Source: a virus
Length of the DNA: 39,246 nt
Direction: 5' to 3' (one strand)
Virus record (IMG/VR): IMGVR_UViG_3300045988_059661
Part shown: one piece after another, positions 1 through 39,246 of the stretch
Position numbering within the stretch: position 1 is the stretch's first letter
Layout of the letters: each line of letters starts with the position of its first letter
Notes under the pieces: generated by a model
Told to the model about the DNA's origin: nothing
What the model saw: the letters and a program-made list of their open reading frames with translations, nothing else
Databases searched by the model: none
Position numbers and translations under genes: made by a program

Positions 1-119
1 CTTTTTAATCGTCGGGGGAAAGGCTCATTTTTCTTATACCTCACAGGAAGGAATAAACGCTGACTTGTCAACCGATGGAGTCTTAGGTTTTATTTTAAAA
101 TTATTAAAACAAAAAAAAG
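1..119 (+). repeat. Terminal direct repeat, copy 1 (identical to 39128-39246); contig-closure overlap or direct terminal repeat
   Basis: Exact 119/119 identity between the window start and end, read directly from the sequence. Confidence 0.95.
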
Positions 120-193
120 ACTCCCACGTATCCGTGGAAGTCCTTCAAAAAATTACTGATGATTTAAACATAAAAACGCCAAAAGACGACTAG
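2..193 (+). CDS. 3' portion of the wrap-around CDS (continues from 38316-39246); the unique part is 120-193 with TAG at 191-193
   Basis: The reading frame of the ORF starting at 38316 continues without interruption through the repeat (…LKLLKQKK|DSHVSVEVLQKITDDLNIKTPKDD*). Confidence 0.6.
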   Translation, partial: FLIVGGKAHFSYTSQEGINADLSTDGVLGFILKLLKQKKDSHVSVEVLQKITDDLNIKTPKDD

Positions 194-384
194 TTAATGA
201 CTAAATATTTTCGTCTCAGCGAAAATAGAACAATAATAACACTAGCAATCCATCTACCAATATCTATATATTGATTTAAGTAGATACCCCCTATATAGAG
301 ACCTAAAGAAATTATTATACACACGATTGATGTAAAAATAAGAAAGAGGAAAATTGTTGAAATTATTCCCCTGATTTTCCCCAT
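190..384 (-). CDS. Small two-TM membrane protein (64 aa), unknown function
   Basis: ATG at 384 preceded by GGAGGAGG at 5-nt spacing; two hydrophobic helices; convergent with the wrap-around gene. Confidence 0.45.
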   Translation of the reverse strand: MGKIRGIISTIFLFLIFTSIVCIIISLGLYIGGIYLNQYIDIGRWIASVIIVLFSLRRKYLVIN

Positions 385-455
385 AATACCTCCTCCTTCC
401 ATATATTGATCTTCTTTTTCTAATTGTATCACGTATTTTACATTTTATATATCGA

Positions 456-471
456 TTTTCCTATAGGAAAA
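456..471. promoter_or_regulatory. Perfect 16-bp palindrome TTTTCCTATAGGAAAA adjacent to the putative promoter of the 190-384 gene
   Basis: Self-complementary 16-mer; a minus-strand extended -10 (TGaTACAAT, 423-431) and TCGATA -35 lie just downstream. Confidence 0.3.
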
Positions 472-531
472 TATAATTTTGCTATACTTAGTTTTATTCC
501 CATTATCCATACGAATTTATTGAACGGGAGC

Positions 532-571
532 CTTATTAGCAGACCGACATTGATGTCGGTCTGCTAATAAG
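532..571. repeat. 40-bp inverted repeat with perfect 19-bp arms and a 2-bp centre (CTTATTAGCAGACCGACAT tg ATGTCGGTCTGCTAATAAG); a second 7-bp-stem hairpin follows at 572-593
   Basis: Exact reverse-complement arms; no U-tract on either strand. Confidence 0.9.
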
Positions 572-641
572 AAATGGCATATTTAAGCCATTTAAAGAAT
601 CTTAAAGAGTTTTTCTATTAAAATCTATGACAGAAGGAGGT

Positions 642-670
642 TTGACAGGAGCTTATTATCATGATATATT
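642..670 (+). promoter_or_regulatory. Sigma-A-type promoter upstream of the abi gene: -35 TTGACA (642-647), 17-bp spacer, TGn plus -10 TATATT (662-670)
   Basis: Consensus -35, optimal spacer and extended -10. Confidence 0.5.
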
Positions 671-710
671 ATGTCCATGGTATCTGGGGAGACTGAAAAG
701 TCGCAACCTG

Positions 711-750
711 AAAGAGCCGTGTACATAACACGTTATGTGCACGGCTCTTT
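711..750 (+). promoter_or_regulatory. Near-perfect 40-bp inverted repeat (19-bp arms, one mismatch) in the abi 5' leader; RNA hairpin followed by a U-rich tract (TTTATGTTATT); intrinsic-terminator/attenuator-like, or an operator
   Basis: AAAGAGCCGTGTACATAAC ac GTTATGTGCACGGCTCTTT; it ends 8 nt before the abi ATG at 759, and no SD precedes that ATG. Confidence 0.5.
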
Positions 751-758
751 ATGTTATT

Positions 759-1826
759 ATGAAACCATTTAAAACATACGATGAGCAAATCGAGCTTCTA
801 CAAAACCGCGGGCTTCTTCCTAATATTTCCGAAGTAACAGTTTTTCATATCAAAAATAGGCCCGATAAAGTATTACTCCCCGTTAACCCACTAAACATTA
901 GGAAACTTAACTTTTCCAAGTCACAAGCCACCAAATACGCAAAGGAGCTCCTACAAACATACGGGTATTATAATATTGTAAACCAATACAATAAGCCATT
1001 CTTACAGAGTGACGGAAATTACCAAGCTGATATCGACTTTTTCATGTTATTCAGCCTTCATCAGATTGATACTAAAATGGAAAATATTATTTTTTACCCT
1101 ATTTTACAAGTAGAGCAACGATTAAAAACCTGTATTGCATATGAATTTGCAAAATCTTACGGTCCATTTGAGGGAGATATTATTAAGAATTATATTGAGC
1201 CCTATTTCCAACCGGCTAATTATAATCAGTATTTAAAGACAAAAAAGGGGGTCCCTAAATACACCCTCCTGATTAAAAAATTAAAGGACATTTACGCAGA
1301 CGCTGAATACAAACCATTTCAACATTATAAAACTCATCATTCGCATATCCCAATTTGGGTATTTATAAATAAGCTTACTTATGGAGAATTGTTTCATTTT
1401 TACGAGGTTCTAAAAATTCAGCTAAATATAGCTGCCAATTTTAAGCTGACTCCCAGCCAACTTCGTACAATAATGTTATTTTTAAACCAAGTTAGAAATG
1501 ACTGTGCTCATTTCTCCGGATTTTATAACCAGCGATATCCCTATATAAAAAAAGATGTTCCTTTATTAAGTGCGTTTCAAAGTAAATTCTCTTTTCAGTC
1601 CCAACGGGAAGTCCCTAACATGTTTTTATTGCTTATCATTTTTAAATACTTATTACCTAAATCAAACTTTGATTTACTTTCAAAAACTGTAAAACGCGAA
1701 ATATTTGACTTTATTTCTGAGAAATATATCCCCAAAATAAGTGAGCATATGAAAGATAAACTAGCCATTCCCTCGAAAAAAGATTGTGACGATAAATTTA
1801 GTTTTTTAGAGCATTATAAAATATGA
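759..1826 (+). CDS. Abi_2-family abortive infection protein (AbiD/AbiF-like)
   Basis: N-terminus MKPFKTYDEQIELLQNRGL matches the conserved Abi_2 N-terminal motif; 355 aa; lies between the contig junction and int. Confidence 0.75.
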   Translation: MKPFKTYDEQIELLQNRGLLPNISEVTVFHIKNRPDKVLLPVNPLNIRKLNFSKSQATKYAKELLQTYGYYNIVNQYNKPFLQSDGNYQADIDFFMLFSLHQIDTKMENIIFYPILQVEQRLKTCIAYEFAKSYGPFEGDIIKNYIEPYFQPANYNQYLKTKKGVPKYTLLIKKLKDIYADAEYKPFQHYKTHHSHIPIWVFINKLTYGELFHFYEVLKIQLNIAANFKLTPSQLRTIMLFLNQVRNDCAHFSGFYNQRYPYIKKDVPLLSAFQSKFSFQSQREVPNMFLLLIIFKYLLPKSNFDLLSKTVKREIFDFISEKYIPKISEHMKDKLAIPSKKDCDDKFSFLEHYKI

Positions 1827-1832
1827 TTTTGC

Positions 1833-1862
1833 TAGTCCAGTATTTTGTCTAAAACTGGACTA
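1833..1862 (+). terminator. Stem-loop (9-bp stem TAGTCCAGT/ACTGGACTA, 12-nt loop) just after the abi stop; weak terminator or regulatory hairpin
   Basis: Perfect 9-bp inverted repeat 7 nt after the TGA at 1824-1826; no strong U-tract. Confidence 0.3.
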
Positions 1863-2015
1863 ACGACTAAAAAATGCCCGCACTCTGCTACCAACAGAAT
1901 ACGGGCGTGCCGGGTACTACCAATACCACGGCGATATAATCCACCTTCTCACGGGCTGATTACGCTATCAGTATATCATAATCAGCCCCTTTTCAGAAAG
2001 GAGCTGTATTTTTTT

Positions 2016-3245
2016 ATGATCTCTAAGAAAAAAGAAATATATTACGTCGTCATTACACAGAAAGACCCTTTGACGAATGCCTGGAAAAAGAAATGGATAC
2101 GATCCGGCACGAGTAAACGTGAGGCCGAAAAGCTTGAACGGAAACTTATGAGCGAGAAGGACGAAGGGGCAATTATTTTAACGGGAAGAGGAATTCCTAC
2201 ACTACTTGATTTTCTCACCAGGTGGCTCGACACGTGCATTAAACCGCCTGCTCGTAAGGTTGCTACTTATACTAATTACAGGGCTATCTGCAAGCGAGTT
2301 ATAGCTGATTTAGGTGGACATAAGCTTGATAAGGTTACGCCGCTTATGATTGCTACTTATTACAAAGAATTAAGTAGCCGAGGGCTTTCTAATACTACCA
2401 TTCGACTGACGCACCGCATCCTGAAGGCCGCGTTAGACCAAGCGGTAAAATGGCAGCTCTTAAATCGCAATCCGCTAATAGATATAGCTCCTCCGGCGCC
2501 GATTAAACCGAAAAATGAAGCCCTTACTACTACTGATGCATTGTCCTTAATTGAATACGCCACTGAACAGTCGAAACAATCAGGATACACTCGAAATAAA
2601 GTAAGCTGTATTCTTTTGCTCGGTATCTTCTGCGGATTGCGTCGTGGAGAGATTGCGGGGCTTCGTTGGCAAGACGTTGACTTTACCGAGTCTACTTTAC
2701 ACATCCGGCATAGTCTTTTGCGAATTCCCATTAATGATTTAGCCAGGCTTGATTATCCGTATATCAAAAGAAGCACAAATTCGGCCCTTGTATTAGACAC
2801 TGTAAAAACGGAAGCGTCTGATAATAGCATTATTGTTCCGCAGCATGTTATCTCTTTTCTTCGTCATGTAAAACACCAATACGACACTAACCGCATGCGA
2901 TTTGGGCCGCATTTTCATAATACCCAGTTCGTTATGGCCAATGAAATCGGAGACCCTTATGATCCGAACTGGTACCGCAAAACTCTACACAAGCTAATTC
3001 AATCCTACAATGATAGTCATCCAGGTCGTCCTCCGCTTCCTCTTATACGAGTTCACGACCTTCGGCATACGGCAGCCACTATCCTACTGGAAAATGATGT
3101 GGATATTAAGCTTGTAAGCCGTCAGCTTCGTCACTCGGATACGGGTATAACACAGAACCTCTATCAGCACGTGACGGAACGCCTGGAATCAAAGATTGCG
3201 AACACGCTAGACAGTCTAATGAATGCCGCCAATGCAGAAAAATAA
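2016..3245 (+). CDS. int: Tyrosine integrase (phage integrase family) with an N-terminal arm-binding AP2-like domain
   Basis: C-terminal HDLRHTAATILLENDVDIKLVSRQLRHSDTGITQNLYQHV (R…HxxR…Y catalytic motifs); ATG 2016 after AAAGGAG; the upstream part of the long ORF contains the hairpin and is probably non-coding. Confidence 0.9.
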   Translation: MISKKKEIYYVVITQKDPLTNAWKKKWIRSGTSKREAEKLERKLMSEKDEGAIILTGRGIPTLLDFLTRWLDTCIKPPARKVATYTNYRAICKRVIADLGGHKLDKVTPLMIATYYKELSSRGLSNTTIRLTHRILKAALDQAVKWQLLNRNPLIDIAPPAPIKPKNEALTTTDALSLIEYATEQSKQSGYTRNKVSCILLLGIFCGLRRGEIAGLRWQDVDFTESTLHIRHSLLRIPINDLARLDYPYIKRSTNSALVLDTVKTEASDNSIIVPQHVISFLRHVKHQYDTNRMRFGPHFHNTQFVMANEIGDPYDPNWYRKTLHKLIQSYNDSHPGRPPLPLIRVHDLRHTAATILLENDVDIKLVSRQLRHSDTGITQNLYQHVTERLESKIANTLDSLMNAANAEK

Positions 3246-36669: not shown

Positions 36670-36690
36670 TTGTTGATTATTAATCAACAA
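36670..36690. promoter_or_regulatory. Operator-like palindrome TTGTTGATTA t TAATCAACAA
   Basis: Perfect 10-bp arms; the half-site recurs at 36993-37003 and 36961-36970 in the cro/cI intergenic region; overlaps the cro stop. Confidence 0.5.
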
Positions 36691-36895
36691 TTTGAGCAAA
36701 AAAAATTGCATTCCTATCCTCGGGAGAAAGATTTAATGCCTTACTAAGACAAATAATTTCCGAACACCGGAAATCATTCTTTCCATTCAGCTTATTGTAC
36801 AATCCTTGAGGAGTTAAGCCGCAGGCTTCTGCTAATGCGTAAATCTTAATCCCAGACTTGTTGATTCGATTCTTTAAAAGCTCGTAATTGATCAT
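36680..36895 (-). CDS. Cro-like XRE-family HTH regulator (71 aa)
   Basis: MINYELLKNRINKSGIKIYALAEACGLTPQGLYNKLNG; ATG 36895 after GGAGG; divergent from the cI-like gene. Confidence 0.75.
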   Translation of the reverse strand: MINYELLKNRINKSGIKIYALAEACGLTPQGLYNKLNGKNDFRCSEIICLSKALNLSPEDRNAIFFAQIVD

Positions 36896-36937
36896 CTTTA
36901 CACCTCCTCTCAATGTTGATTTAAAATCTACAATCAC

Positions 36938-36967
36938 ATAATAGCATTCATGATTCCATCTTGTCAA
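36938..36967 (-). promoter_or_regulatory. Putative early lytic promoter (PR-like): -35 TTGACA (36962-36967), 18-bp spacer, -10 TATTAT (36938-36943)
   Basis: Consensus -35 inside the operator half-site TTGTTGACAA. Confidence 0.5.
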
Positions 36968-36995
36968 CAAAATTTTCCTATTTCGTAAATTTTTG

Positions 36996-37024
36996 TTGAT
37001 TATTTTGAAACGGTCTGCTATAAT
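36996..37024 (+). promoter_or_regulatory. Putative repressor promoter: -35 TTGATT (36996-37001), 17-bp spacer, -10 TATAAT (37019-37024)
   Basis: The -35 overlaps the operator half-site TTGTTGATTAT; RBS AAAGGAG at 37032-37038. Confidence 0.5.
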
Positions 37025-37046
37025 TCCCCCAAAAGGAGATATTCAT

Positions 37047-37424
37047 ATGGAAACTATTTATGAACGCATTCGGCGATTAAGACAAGAAAACAATATGTCT
37101 CAAGACGAATTGGCAAAGAAAACCGGATACACTTCTCGCAGTACGATTAATAAAATTGAAGCTGGAAAGATTGATATATCACGGGCAAAAATCAAGGTTT
37201 TTGCCGACGCTCTTGGAGTTACCCCAGCATACTTAATGGGATGGGAAGACGAATCGGAACAAGGCTACTACACCGACCCAGAGGTAGCGGAATACGCCGA
37301 AGAGCTGAGGACGAATCCTAAGTACCGGCTGCTATTCGACGCTAGCAAGGATTTAAGCAAGGAAGATATAGATTTCGTGGTCGATATGATAGAACGATTA
37401 AAAGCCCGTGAAGGGAAGGAATAA
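37047..37424 (+). CDS. CI/ImmR-like XRE-family repressor (125 aa)
   Basis: HTH QDELAKKTGYTSRSTINKIEAGK; ATG 37047 after AAAGGAG. Confidence 0.8.
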   Translation: METIYERIRRLRQENNMSQDELAKKTGYTSRSTINKIEAGKIDISRAKIKVFADALGVTPAYLMGWEDESEQGYYTDPEVAEYAEELRTNPKYRLLFDASKDLSKEDIDFVVDMIERLKAREGKE

Positions 37425-37429
37425 AAAAC

Positions 37430-37696
37430 TTGAACGTTACGCTATTGTACGCTGAATTGAAACCGTCTCAGACGGCTGTAGTCCGTGAGAATGAAGACGG
37501 CTCTTATACTATATTAATCAACAAAAATAAATGCCCTGAACGGCAAATTCAGGGCGTATTACACGAACTGGCACATATTAAGAACGATGACTTTAGCAGC
37601 GACTTACACGCTGACATGGTAGAGTCGTTACTACATAATGCAACTCCCTGCCCTCGTGTAGCTGAAGACGTCGAGTTTTACTGCCGGGTTGTATAA
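37430..37696 (+). CDS. Short ImmA/IrrE-like HEXXH metallopeptidase (88 aa); putative anti-repressor protease
   Basis: GVLHELAHIKNDD (HEXXH); TTG start 9 nt after GGGAAGGA; immediately downstream of the repressor. Confidence 0.6.
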   Translation: MNVTLLYAELKPSQTAVVRENEDGSYTILINKNKCPERQIQGVLHELAHIKNDDFSSDLHADMVESLLHNATPCPRVAEDVEFYCRVV

Positions 37697-37736: not shown

Positions 37737-38177
37737 ATGAAAAAATTGCTATTAACCATTTTATGCGTACTCATTTGTCCCCTTGCGGTTAACGCCGTTA
37801 ATTACGTCCAGATCTCAAAGAATATAGAATCAGCCGTCTTTGTCGACAATGATAGCATTTCTGTAATCCGCTATGCACCACCATATTATGTTATTCAATG
37901 TGATGAACGAATTCACAGTTTTACAATGGGAAAATGGGCTCAAATAACGAGCCAATATCTCTATGACTATGATAATCAGATTATTAAAAAACGATATGTT
38001 AGCATGAAAGCAAGAAAAGAAGATTCCCCTTGGAGTAATCCTATTAAATATACAAGGATAGACGACGTTAGTAAAAATCAATCCAACTGGTGGATAGCCA
38101 ATTACATCTTCAACAAGGCGTATAACATGTATTTCTCTCCGGAAGTGCAGGCCAAGTATGGAGCCAAGCATACATAA
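37737..38177 (+). CDS. Secreted protein (signal peptide MKKLLLTILCVLICPLAVNA), unknown function
   Basis: AGGAGG RBS at 6-nt spacing; N-terminal signal peptide. Confidence 0.7.
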   Translation: MKKLLLTILCVLICPLAVNAVNYVQISKNIESAVFVDNDSISVIRYAPPYYVIQCDERIHSFTMGKWAQITSQYLYDYDNQIIKKRYVSMKARKEDSPWSNPIKYTRIDDVSKNQSNWWIANYIFNKAYNMYFSPEVQAKYGAKHT

Positions 38178-38315
38178 TGGCCCTGCCTTCTACTCAAACG
38201 AAGAAATAAACGACCTTCCCGTAACCATTATCGGCAAGGTCATTGAACTGCGGCGATCGTTTTAAAATAATCTCATCTATTTTGATAGACCATTTTTTCA
38301 AGGAGGTATATACCA

Positions 38316-39246
38316 TTGCTTTCCACCGTTACAGAAAAAGACTTGTTAAAGTATCTAAAAGAAGAACATCTGCTCCCCGTTGAGGTTCCCCGTAGAAATT
38401 ATTGGTTTCTGAGAACAAATAGTGGAGATTTTTTTGAAGAGTTCTATGGAAACGACTATGTAGCCATCGGTTGGGACGATATACAACCTATTGCCGAAAA
38501 AGAACGGACCGAAGAGATTCTGAAAGGATATAAATTGATATATGGCCGGATGACTACTCGGATTATGAATCAGGTTTACAGATTCTGTTATGAAATGAAA
38601 AAGGGCGATATTGTGATTATTCCTGCAGCTCGTTCTAACTGGTTTGCCTTTGGTGTCTTAACGGAAGATTCCTGGTACGAAGAAACATTGACGGATGAAG
38701 TTCTTGAAGATGAAGATGCCTGCCATTTTAAAAAGAGACGTTCTGTTAAATGGATTCAATCAGCAAAAAAACACATGGTCGATTCAAAACTATATCTATT
38801 TTTTAGAAACCAACAGGCCTTATCCAAAGCAAATGACTATGCAGAATTTATAGAAAGAGCTATAAACCCGTACTATATTCTTGACGGCGTTGCTCATATT
38901 AATTTTGCTGTGCAGAAAAAAACAAATATCCCGGCTCTTTACTTACCTTTATTTATTACCGGCTTACTGGAATACGCATCCACGTTAAGTAATTCGATTG
39001 ACAGTCGACAATCGGAAACAGAAGACACTTTTTCTAATGAAATTTCAACTAGAATAAACGTTCAAAGTCCCGGAGTTATTGAGTTTCTCGGTGACCCGTT
39101 GAAAATACATTGCCTTGCGATTATTGGCTTTTTAATCGTCGGGGGAAAGGCTCATTTTTCTTATACCTCACAGGAAGGAATAAACGCTGACTTGTCAACC
39201 GATGGAGTCTTAGGTTTTATTTTAAAATTATTAAAACAAAAAAAAG
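38316..39246 (+). CDS. 5' portion of the wrap-around CDS (about 334 aa total; continues at 120-193): PUA-like (EVE/ASCH-type) N-terminal domain (hypothesis) plus an uncharacterised C-terminal half with two hydrophobic segments
   Basis: TTG 38316, 9 nt after AGGAGG; N-terminus …RRNYWFLRTNSGDFFEEFYGNDYVAIGWDD…RIMNQVYRFCYEMKKGDIVIIPAARSNWFAFGVLTED resembles the EVE consensus. Confidence 0.6.
   Translation, partial: MLSTVTEKDLLKYLKEEHLLPVEVPRRNYWFLRTNSGDFFEEFYGNDYVAIGWDDIQPIAEKERTEEILKGYKLIYGRMTTRIMNQVYRFCYEMKKGDIVIIPAARSNWFAFGVLTEDSWYEETLTDEVLEDEDACHFKKRRSVKWIQSAKKHMVDSKLYLFFRNQQALSKANDYAEFIERAINPYYILDGVAHINFAVQKKTNIPALYLPLFITGLLEYASTLSNSIDSRQSETEDTFSNEISTRINVQSPGVIEFLGDPLKIHCLAIIGFLIVGGKAHFSYTSQEGINADLSTDGVLGFILKLLKQKK
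39128..39246 (+). repeat. Terminal direct repeat, copy 2 (identical to 1-119)
   Basis: Exact identity. Confidence 0.95.

Follow-up and report, generated by a model that had tools for sequence, protein, structure and literature searches.

A gene at the ends of a temperate phage genome

The sequence analyzed here, IMG/VR record IMGVR_UViG_3300045988_059661 (39,246 nucleotides; hereafter the window), carries a gene that runs off its last base and resumes at its beginning. Judged by its sequence, the 334-residue product is a member of the Pfam family DUF8426 (PF28530) and of PHROG 10226, neither of which has a recorded function. On the opposite strand, the DUF8426 gene meets tail-to-tail with a small gene for a protein with two predicted transmembrane helices. 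These two genes are the subject of this report, and the coordinates of all features are collected in Table 1.

Bases 1–119 of the window are an exact direct repeat of bases 39128–39246 (119 bp), leaving 39,127 unique bases. The sequence is therefore circular or overlap-assembled, and a gene that wraps around its ends is legitimate. The DUF8426 gene starts with a TTG codon, continues in frame over the junction and ends with a TAG codon after 334 codons. Contiguous 334-residue homologues with 98–90% identity, sharing the N-terminus MLSTVTEKD..., were found on many metagenomic contigs, and the family extends down to ~24–28% identity, showing that the open reading frame is a real gene. The wrap-around reading, made in a first-pass annotation by a model that had only the letters and the open reading frames, was thereby confirmed. 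One related contig has a name of the form k119_....

The window probably represents the whole genome of a temperate phage, 39.1 kb in length. When 24.5 kb of the phage was compared with GenBank phages by megablast, no match was found. One cluster of DUF8426 homologues holds "hypothetical protein" entries of Megasphaera micronuciformis and Colibacter massiliensis, both Veillonellaceae, and in the best explanation the host is a member of the Veillonellaceae of the Megasphaera/Colibacter type.

The assignment to PHROG 10226 comes from a PHROGs search with the 334-residue protein, which matched over residues 25–313 (E = 4.1e-59), whereas PF28530 was found as a precomputed annotation on all 51 of the homologues retrieved in a large protein search (98–24% identity). 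Searches of Pfam, NCBIfam and the PDB sequences with the protein and its profiles gave no informative match; matches to GP46, SH2_2 and canavalin were at chance level and were dismissed. The viral BFVD structure library contained a single full-length homologue, itself uncharacterized, and in the literature library searched, no paper mentions DUF8426.

An N-terminal PUA-like domain shared with restriction endonuclease candidates

A structural model of the DUF8426 protein was generated with AlphaFold2 from a 43-sequence alignment, with a mean predicted local distance difference test (pLDDT) score of 84 and a predicted template modeling (pTM) score of 0.80. The N-terminal domain of the model has the fold of a PUA-like pseudo-barrel. 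In structural comparisons its neighbors were PH1033, an EVE protein (9.5), the EVE-HNH restriction enzyme VcaM4I (9.2) and the YTH domains of YTHDC2, CPSF30, YTHDC1, MRB1, YTHDF1 and Mmi1 (9.0–8.5), followed by an ASCH domain (6.6), the N-terminal domains of McrB (6.5 and 5.9) and THYN1 bound to 5-methylcytosine DNA (6.4). The first-pass annotation had described the first ~130 residues as an EVE/ASCH PUA-like barrel and had named a non-PUA structure prediction as the outcome that would count against it. The fold prediction stands, but membership in the EVE or ASCH sequence profiles does not, as none matched at E ≤ 10.

The residues Y29, W30, R33, G37, F43, D98, P103, G113, R141 and W146 of this domain are invariant in the family. 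Part of the set Y29, W30, F43, W146, R33, R141 and D98 is common to PDC-S02, a candidate system in the PADLOC collection, and these residues may line a base-binding pocket. The connection to PDC-S02 was found with the PADLOC model PDLC04806, which matched the protein at E = 8.9e-23 over residues 28–149 only, corresponding to profile positions 3–123 of 324. The same partial match, covering the N-terminal domain and linker only, was repeated in 10 diverged DUF8426 relatives.

A weaker match to the N-domain profile, protein P0287 (335 residues), turned out to be a bona fide PDC-S02 member, matching PDLC04819 over its full length (E = 2e-131) and carrying an Mrr_cat restriction endonuclease domain as its C-terminal half (PF04471, E = 7.7e-29). 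When the DUF8426 N-domain profile was aligned with P0287 using hhalign, the probability was 98.7% (E = 3.4e-16), with the blocks AIGWD, RF..EMKKGDIV..PS and RR.VKW in common, whereas the C-terminal half of DUF8426 aligned with the Mrr_cat half of P0287 with a probability of only 0.3%. On these profile comparisons, the N-terminal domain of DUF8426 is homologous to that of the PDC-S02/COG4127-type Mrr_cat restriction endonuclease candidates. The earlier suggestion that the reader domain has been swapped between effectors thus has direct support, since the N-domain is shared with PDC-S02 at the sequence level. Enzymes of this type usually recognize their target, in most cases a modified or flipped base, through a domain of this kind.

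COG4127 has been noted before. Some of its members carry an unrelated domain in place of the Mrr-like one, and its N-terminal domain had no known structure at that time (Feder & Bujnicki 2005, PMC1189080). COG4127 is also among the domains found fused to McrB homologues (Bell et al., PMC11090510).

The shared N-terminal domain also seems to account for misleading names in IMG, where DUF8426 members (P0224, P0234, P0239, P0245 and others) are called "restriction system protein" or "predicted Mrr-cat superfamily restriction endonuclease". The latter we take to be the name of COG4127. A domain search found no Mrr_cat domain in these members.

A third architecture of the N-domain was seen in P0282, a 290-residue metagenome protein from ENA, in which a YqeY domain (PF09424, E = 5e-46) stands where the DUF8426 C-terminal domain or Mrr_cat would be. 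The YqeY family is linked to GatB-like domains.

The C-terminal domain lacks a nuclease signature

Domain, profile and structure searches with the C-terminal half of the protein found no nuclease or other catalytic signature, in agreement with the first-pass annotation, which had recognized no catalytic motif there. The same annotation had pointed out two hydrophobic stretches. Both are present, IPALYLPLFITGLLEYA at approximately residues 205–221 and IHCLAIIGFLIVGG at 264–277, and they differ in character. The first lies in a helix (residues 207–227) with a family mean Kyte–Doolittle hydropathy of 0.23, a hydrophobic moment of 1.15 and about six strongly polar residues; it is amphipathic, and not a transmembrane segment.

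The second stretch is preceded by a β-hairpin in which N248, V249, Q250 and S251 are nearly invariant and G253 is invariant. The helix that follows (residues 259–277) is uniformly hydrophobic in all members, although its sequence is not conserved, with a family mean hydropathy of 1.70 and a hydrophobic moment of 0.34. In 94% of 135 representatives, the best 19-residue window had a hydropathy of 1.6 or more, at a relative position of 0.74 in the protein; its value was 1.81 in the query and 2.14 at the family median, while the uncharged run had a median of only 17 residues. In two independent models, the helix forms the middle helix of a globular C-terminal domain, with a pLDDT of ~90, and basic residues flank it on both sides. 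The short uncharged run of ~17 residues, the two-sided basic flanks and the packing in the model argue against a simple transmembrane anchor. The helix may be buried in the core of the domain, or it may be a latent segment that inserts into the membrane.

The combination of the two halves is constant. The N-terminal 172 residues were made into a profile and run against 1.84 billion cluster representatives, yielding 3,543 proteins (50%-identity clusters) at E ≤ 1e-3, 307 of them at E ≤ 1e-30. Among the best 150 matches, 135 proteins were at least 300 residues long, and every one of these also matched the profile of the C-terminal half (E ≤ 6e-12), showing that the two-domain architecture is fixed across a large family.

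A small membrane-protein gene accompanies DUF8426

The first-pass annotation had missed a conserved small gene that directly adjoins DUF8426 at its 3′ end. It encodes a 64-residue protein (MGKIRGIISTIF...RRKYLVIN), and its stop codon overlaps that of the DUF8426 gene in the sequence CTAG at 190–193. Where the DUF8426 proteins are 90% and 45% identical to that of the window, the same small convergent gene is found, with products 98% and 41% identical to the window's partner protein. A terminator-like hairpin on the partner-gene strand, located inside the DUF8426 coding region, is likely the 3′ end of the partner-gene transcript, as far as can be predicted. Such minus-strand hairpins, located either within the DUF8426 gene or at its 3′ end, were found in four lineages (the window and loci L006, L026 and L018), and the transcripts of the two genes should therefore overlap at their 3′ ends.

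We then asked how regularly the pair occurs. Using a strict definition of two transmembrane helices, an open reading frame was found between −70 and +330 nt of the DUF8426 stop codon in 19 of 31 distinct loci, whereas the remainder of these loci yielded such reading frames at a background rate of 0.043 per 400 nt (binomial P = 9e-19). Inspection of the loci missed by this definition revealed a 57–77-residue reading frame with two transmembrane helices in all but one, bringing the total to approximately 30 of 31. The lone locus without a partner carries a truncated gene. Across the loci, the partner proteins range from 55 to 77 residues, encoded by homologous or analogous reading frames at the same place.

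In Negativicutes and Firmicutes, the partner gene lies tail-to-tail with DUF8426, usually with overlapping stop codons; the two genes overlap by up to 52 nt or are separated by up to 32 nt. In the two Bacteroidota loci, the partner gene starts 44 nt downstream of DUF8426 and runs in the same direction. The latter arrangement shows that the link holds at the protein level and not only through antisense overlap. The pN/pS ratio (non-synonymous to synonymous polymorphism) of the partner between related copies was 0.24–0.39, indicating that the reading frame is translated and under purifying selection. The best match of the partner to an effector-type family (SLATT_5, E = 0.16) and a match to Hok/Gef (E = 0.022) were not significant. 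Of the two possible connections to the membrane, the separate and near-universally linked partner gene is a stronger one than the hydrophobic stretches of DUF8426 itself.

Distribution and genomic context

Distant members of the family, with 22–30% identity, are found in annotated temperate phages and satellites: in Streptococcus, phages IPP63, SF39, phiARI0460-1 and Javan phages, as well as Javan satellites, and also in phages or satellites of Staphylococcus pseudintermedius, Fusobacterium and Lactobacillus. DUF8426 genes are present in genomes of Clostridiales, Vagococcus, Priestia and Bacteroidota as well.

The placement of the gene in the lysogeny-side cargo region, proposed from the window, proved correct: repressor and ImmA genes lie upstream and an integrase gene downstream, consistently in every relative examined. 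In all loci with gene calls or annotation, DUF8426 comes after a CI-type repressor or ImmA gene, with which it shares a strand, and before the integrase gene. The prophages themselves differ in their hosts and have either tyrosine or serine integrases, and the neighboring cargo varies, including Fic, RhuM and an HsdR_N protein in relatives and Abi_2 in the window. In Priestia, the DUF8426 gene is at the prophage end, adjoining the lysis genes. The constancy of the slot across differing integrases, hosts and cargo indicates that DUF8426 behaves as a mobile, lysogen-expressed accessory gene.

Table 1. Features of the window in and around the DUF8426 gene and its partner.
Feature	Position	Strand	Remarks
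DUF8426 gene, 5′ part	38316..39246	+	TTG start; codons 1–310 and first base of codon 311
DUF8426 gene, 3′ part beyond the junction	120..193	+	rest of codon 311 to codon 334, then TAG at 191–193
Ribosome-binding site of DUF8426 gene, AAGGAGG	38300..38306	+	9 nt upstream of TTG
PUA-like (EVE/YTH-like) N-domain, residues 27–151	38394..38768	+	long inserted helix at 66–93
Helical linker, residues 152–185	38769..38870	+	highly conserved; motif FFRNQQALS..N.Y.EFIERAINP
C-terminal α/β domain, residues 186–310	38871..39245	+	three β-hairpin-plus-helix units
First stretch, residues 207–227	38934..38996	+	amphipathic helix, not transmembrane
β-hairpin, residues 243–259	39042..39092	+	conserved motif RINVQSPGVIE
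Second stretch, residues 259–277	39090..39146	+	uniformly hydrophobic helix ending GG(K)
Partner gene, 64 residues, two predicted transmembrane helices	190..384	−	open reading frame with ribosome-binding site
Ribosome-binding site of partner gene	389..399	−	GGAGG-type; mRNA GGAAGGAGGAGG-TATT-ATG
Terminator-like hairpin and T-run	115..146	−	within last 25 codons of DUF8426 gene
Cro-like helix-turn-helix gene	36680–36970	−	from gene order
CI-type helix-turn-helix repressor	36993–37424	+	from gene order
ImmA/IrrE M78 peptidase	37430–37696	+	88 residues; profile positions 5–59 of 123
Secreted 146-residue protein	37737–38177	+	clear signal peptide (MKKLLLTILCVLICPLAVNA), no Pfam match
Abi_2 (AbiD/AbiF-like) gene	~759–1826	+	Pfam E = 1.4e-31; directly after the module
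Tyrosine integrase	1845–3245		from gene order; lysis genes further on

The ImmA/M78 protein has 137–140 residues in loci L006–L009, and the 88-residue version of the window may be truncated or mis-started. Between ImmA and DUF8426, the window has the gene for the secreted protein, which the relatives do not have there; its product may be further lysogen-expressed cargo, for example a surface or exclusion protein. In L006–L009 (6505–7530), a RhuM gene stands immediately before ImmA–DUF8426, with the helix-turn-helix repressor on one side and the M78 gene on the other, and in L010 (3590–5740), HSDR_N and RhuM genes lie between ImmA and DUF8426. The slot between repressor or ImmA and DUF8426 seems to collect variable defense-type cargo.

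On the other side of the module, the Abi_2 gene has a near-consensus promoter of its own (TTGACA-17-TATATT with TG, 642–670), and a hairpin with an 18-bp stem (711–750) is located just ahead of its likely ATG at 759. Abi_2 looks like a second defense-type cargo gene with a possible leader structure. A strong GC-rich hairpin at 538–567 (AGCAGACCGACAT-TGA-TGTCGGTCTGCT), followed by a T-run on neither strand, lies between the region upstream of the partner gene and the Abi_2 promoter. An Rfam search of window positions 1–900 gave nothing at the gathering score.

Proposed function and alternatives

We propose that DUF8426 and its two-transmembrane partner form a phage-exclusion or abortive-infection module that would sense nucleic acid and have membrane damage as its output, a reading to which we assign a probability of roughly 0.45. 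We infer the ligand, the activation, the membrane action and the defense phenotype as follows. The two genes would constitute a cargo module; it lies directly downstream of the repressor and ImmA genes, where expression in the lysogen is possible. The DUF8426 protein would most likely be the cytoplasmic sensor, with its reader domain binding some nucleic-acid feature of an invading phage; the odds that this ligand is a modified base we put at about one in three. Binding would change the C-terminal domain, which would then engage or release the small membrane protein, and membrane damage or depolarization through this partner would cause the infection to be excluded or aborted. Such a system could have evolved from the PDC-S02 architecture by an effector swap, in which DNA cutting was replaced by membrane attack.

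Several observations weigh against this proposal. Neither the query nor any of the 43 aligned members matched an EVE, YTH or ASCH Pfam profile at E ≤ 10, and profile searches of the PDB sequences returned no EVE, YTH or ASCH chain for DUF8426; since no such profile matches, the PUA assignment is one of fold only. The structure search with the C-terminal domain gave no informative neighbor, and the hydrophobic helix at 259–277 may be only a core helix, since AlphaFold packs it into the globular domain. For the partner protein, searches of Pfam and PHROGs found nothing significant and no known effector family. Finally, the literature on PDC-S02 was found to consist of surveys and one negative plaque assay, in which the sole representative assayed gave no protection (T4, T5, T7; E. 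coli B; 10.1101/2024.09.26.614923).

The same pair of genes could instead be a toxin–antitoxin-like addiction or stress module, with the partner as a membrane toxin that is kept in check by the DUF8426 protein or by the overlapping transcript, and released when transcription of the repressor operon is lost or when a phage interferes. The tail-to-tail genes with overlapping stop codons fit this explanation, as do the terminator-like hairpin that four lineages have within the DUF8426 coding sequence and the small and hydrophobic partner with its weak, non-significant Hok/Gef-like match; the arrangement resembles that of the type I toxin–antitoxin loci of Firmicutes prophages. We nevertheless consider it unlikely. 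The arrangement in Bacteroidota, with the partner downstream in the same direction, leaves no room for an antisense overlap, no known antisense RNA was detected by Rfam in the first 900 bases of the window, and a two-transmembrane protein of 55–77 residues is larger than the typical type I toxin. The presence of a reader domain common with restriction enzymes would also be left unexplained. In another model, the partner would anchor DUF8426 at the inner face of the membrane as a superinfection exclusion (Sie) complex, blocking or capturing incoming phage DNA while the cell survives. Both the membrane partner and the hydrophobic helix would suit such a complex, and the Sie genes of Gram-positive temperate phages are usually found between the repressor and integrase genes. 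This model cannot be distinguished from abortive infection by sequence alone, no homology to known Sie proteins was found in the PADLOC and PHROG searches, and we know of no Sie protein with a PUA-like domain; we regard it as decidedly improbable.

Two further explanations were considered. DUF8426 might bind DNA or RNA and regulate lysogeny or induction, having kept a reader-like fold but no role in defense, the partner being unrelated cargo. No function is on record for the family as a whole, and the gene may be co-transcribed with the repressor and ImmA genes. However, its occurrence in unrelated prophages and satellites with differing repressors and integrases is that of mobile cargo rather than of a core regulator, the linkage to the partner gene is far beyond chance, and the N-domain is common with restriction-enzyme candidates that PADLOC lists as candidates for phage defense, making this explanation very improbable. 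The most improbable of all is the one-protein system proposed in the first-pass annotation, in which the two hydrophobic stretches of DUF8426 would themselves be the transmembrane effector. The helix at 259–277 does exceed the Kyte–Doolittle threshold, both in the query and at the family median, but the first stretch is amphipathic, the second has basic residues on both sides of its short uncharged run and is packed in two models, and the near-universal partner gene argues against a single-gene system.

If the proposed module is real, a reader-type domain common with predicted restriction endonucleases would feed a membrane effector, a combination of which we found no description, and a compact two-gene system would be added to the prophage-encoded defenses. 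More broadly, and more tentatively, DUF8426 and its partner could represent a widespread and undescribed form of prophage immunity, in which the recognition domain of a type IV-like restriction enzyme family now acts through a membrane-disrupting effector in place of a nuclease, so that foreign, possibly modified, nucleic acid would trigger collapse of the membrane rather than cleavage of DNA; we find this doubtful, but possible. The family is not rare: its members were found in prophages and satellites of Negativicutes from mouth and gut, of streptococci (pneumococcal prophages among them) and staphylococci, and of Fusobacterium, Lactobacillus, Priestia and Bacteroidota. It had been catalogued only as a DUF and a PHROG without assigned function, and its N-domain had been indexed only through the candidate PADLOC system; we found neither the fold assignment nor the effector swap nor the partner gene described earlier. 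For a domain of unknown function, the analysis provides a concrete hypothesis that can be put to the test, and it corrects database names of the "restriction system protein" type on members that have no nuclease.

Comparison with known systems

The RexA/RexB system of phage lambda consists of a cytoplasmic sensor and a membrane protein, encoded beside cI and expressed in the lysogen. The DUF8426 pair is likewise located beside a prophage repressor gene and includes an adjacent gene for an integral membrane protein, but it has no homology to RexA or RexB.

PDC-S02 proteins resemble DUF8426 in having the homologous domain at the N-terminus and a similar total length of ~300–350 residues. They differ in the C-terminal half, which in DUF8426 is an unrelated α/β domain with a hydrophobic helix, with neither Mrr_cat nor any other nuclease. 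DUF8426 also has the two-transmembrane partner gene, whereas none was present at the single PDC-S02 locus examined, which is one case only. A comparison can also be made with the type IV restriction enzymes that carry fused EVE, YTH or ASCH domains, such as VcaM4I (EVE-HNH) and archaeal McrB with YTH-like N-terminal domains. Unlike these, DUF8426 does not belong to the EVE, YTH or ASCH profiles and has no nuclease or GTPase, and its candidate effector would be associated with the membrane instead of cleaving DNA.

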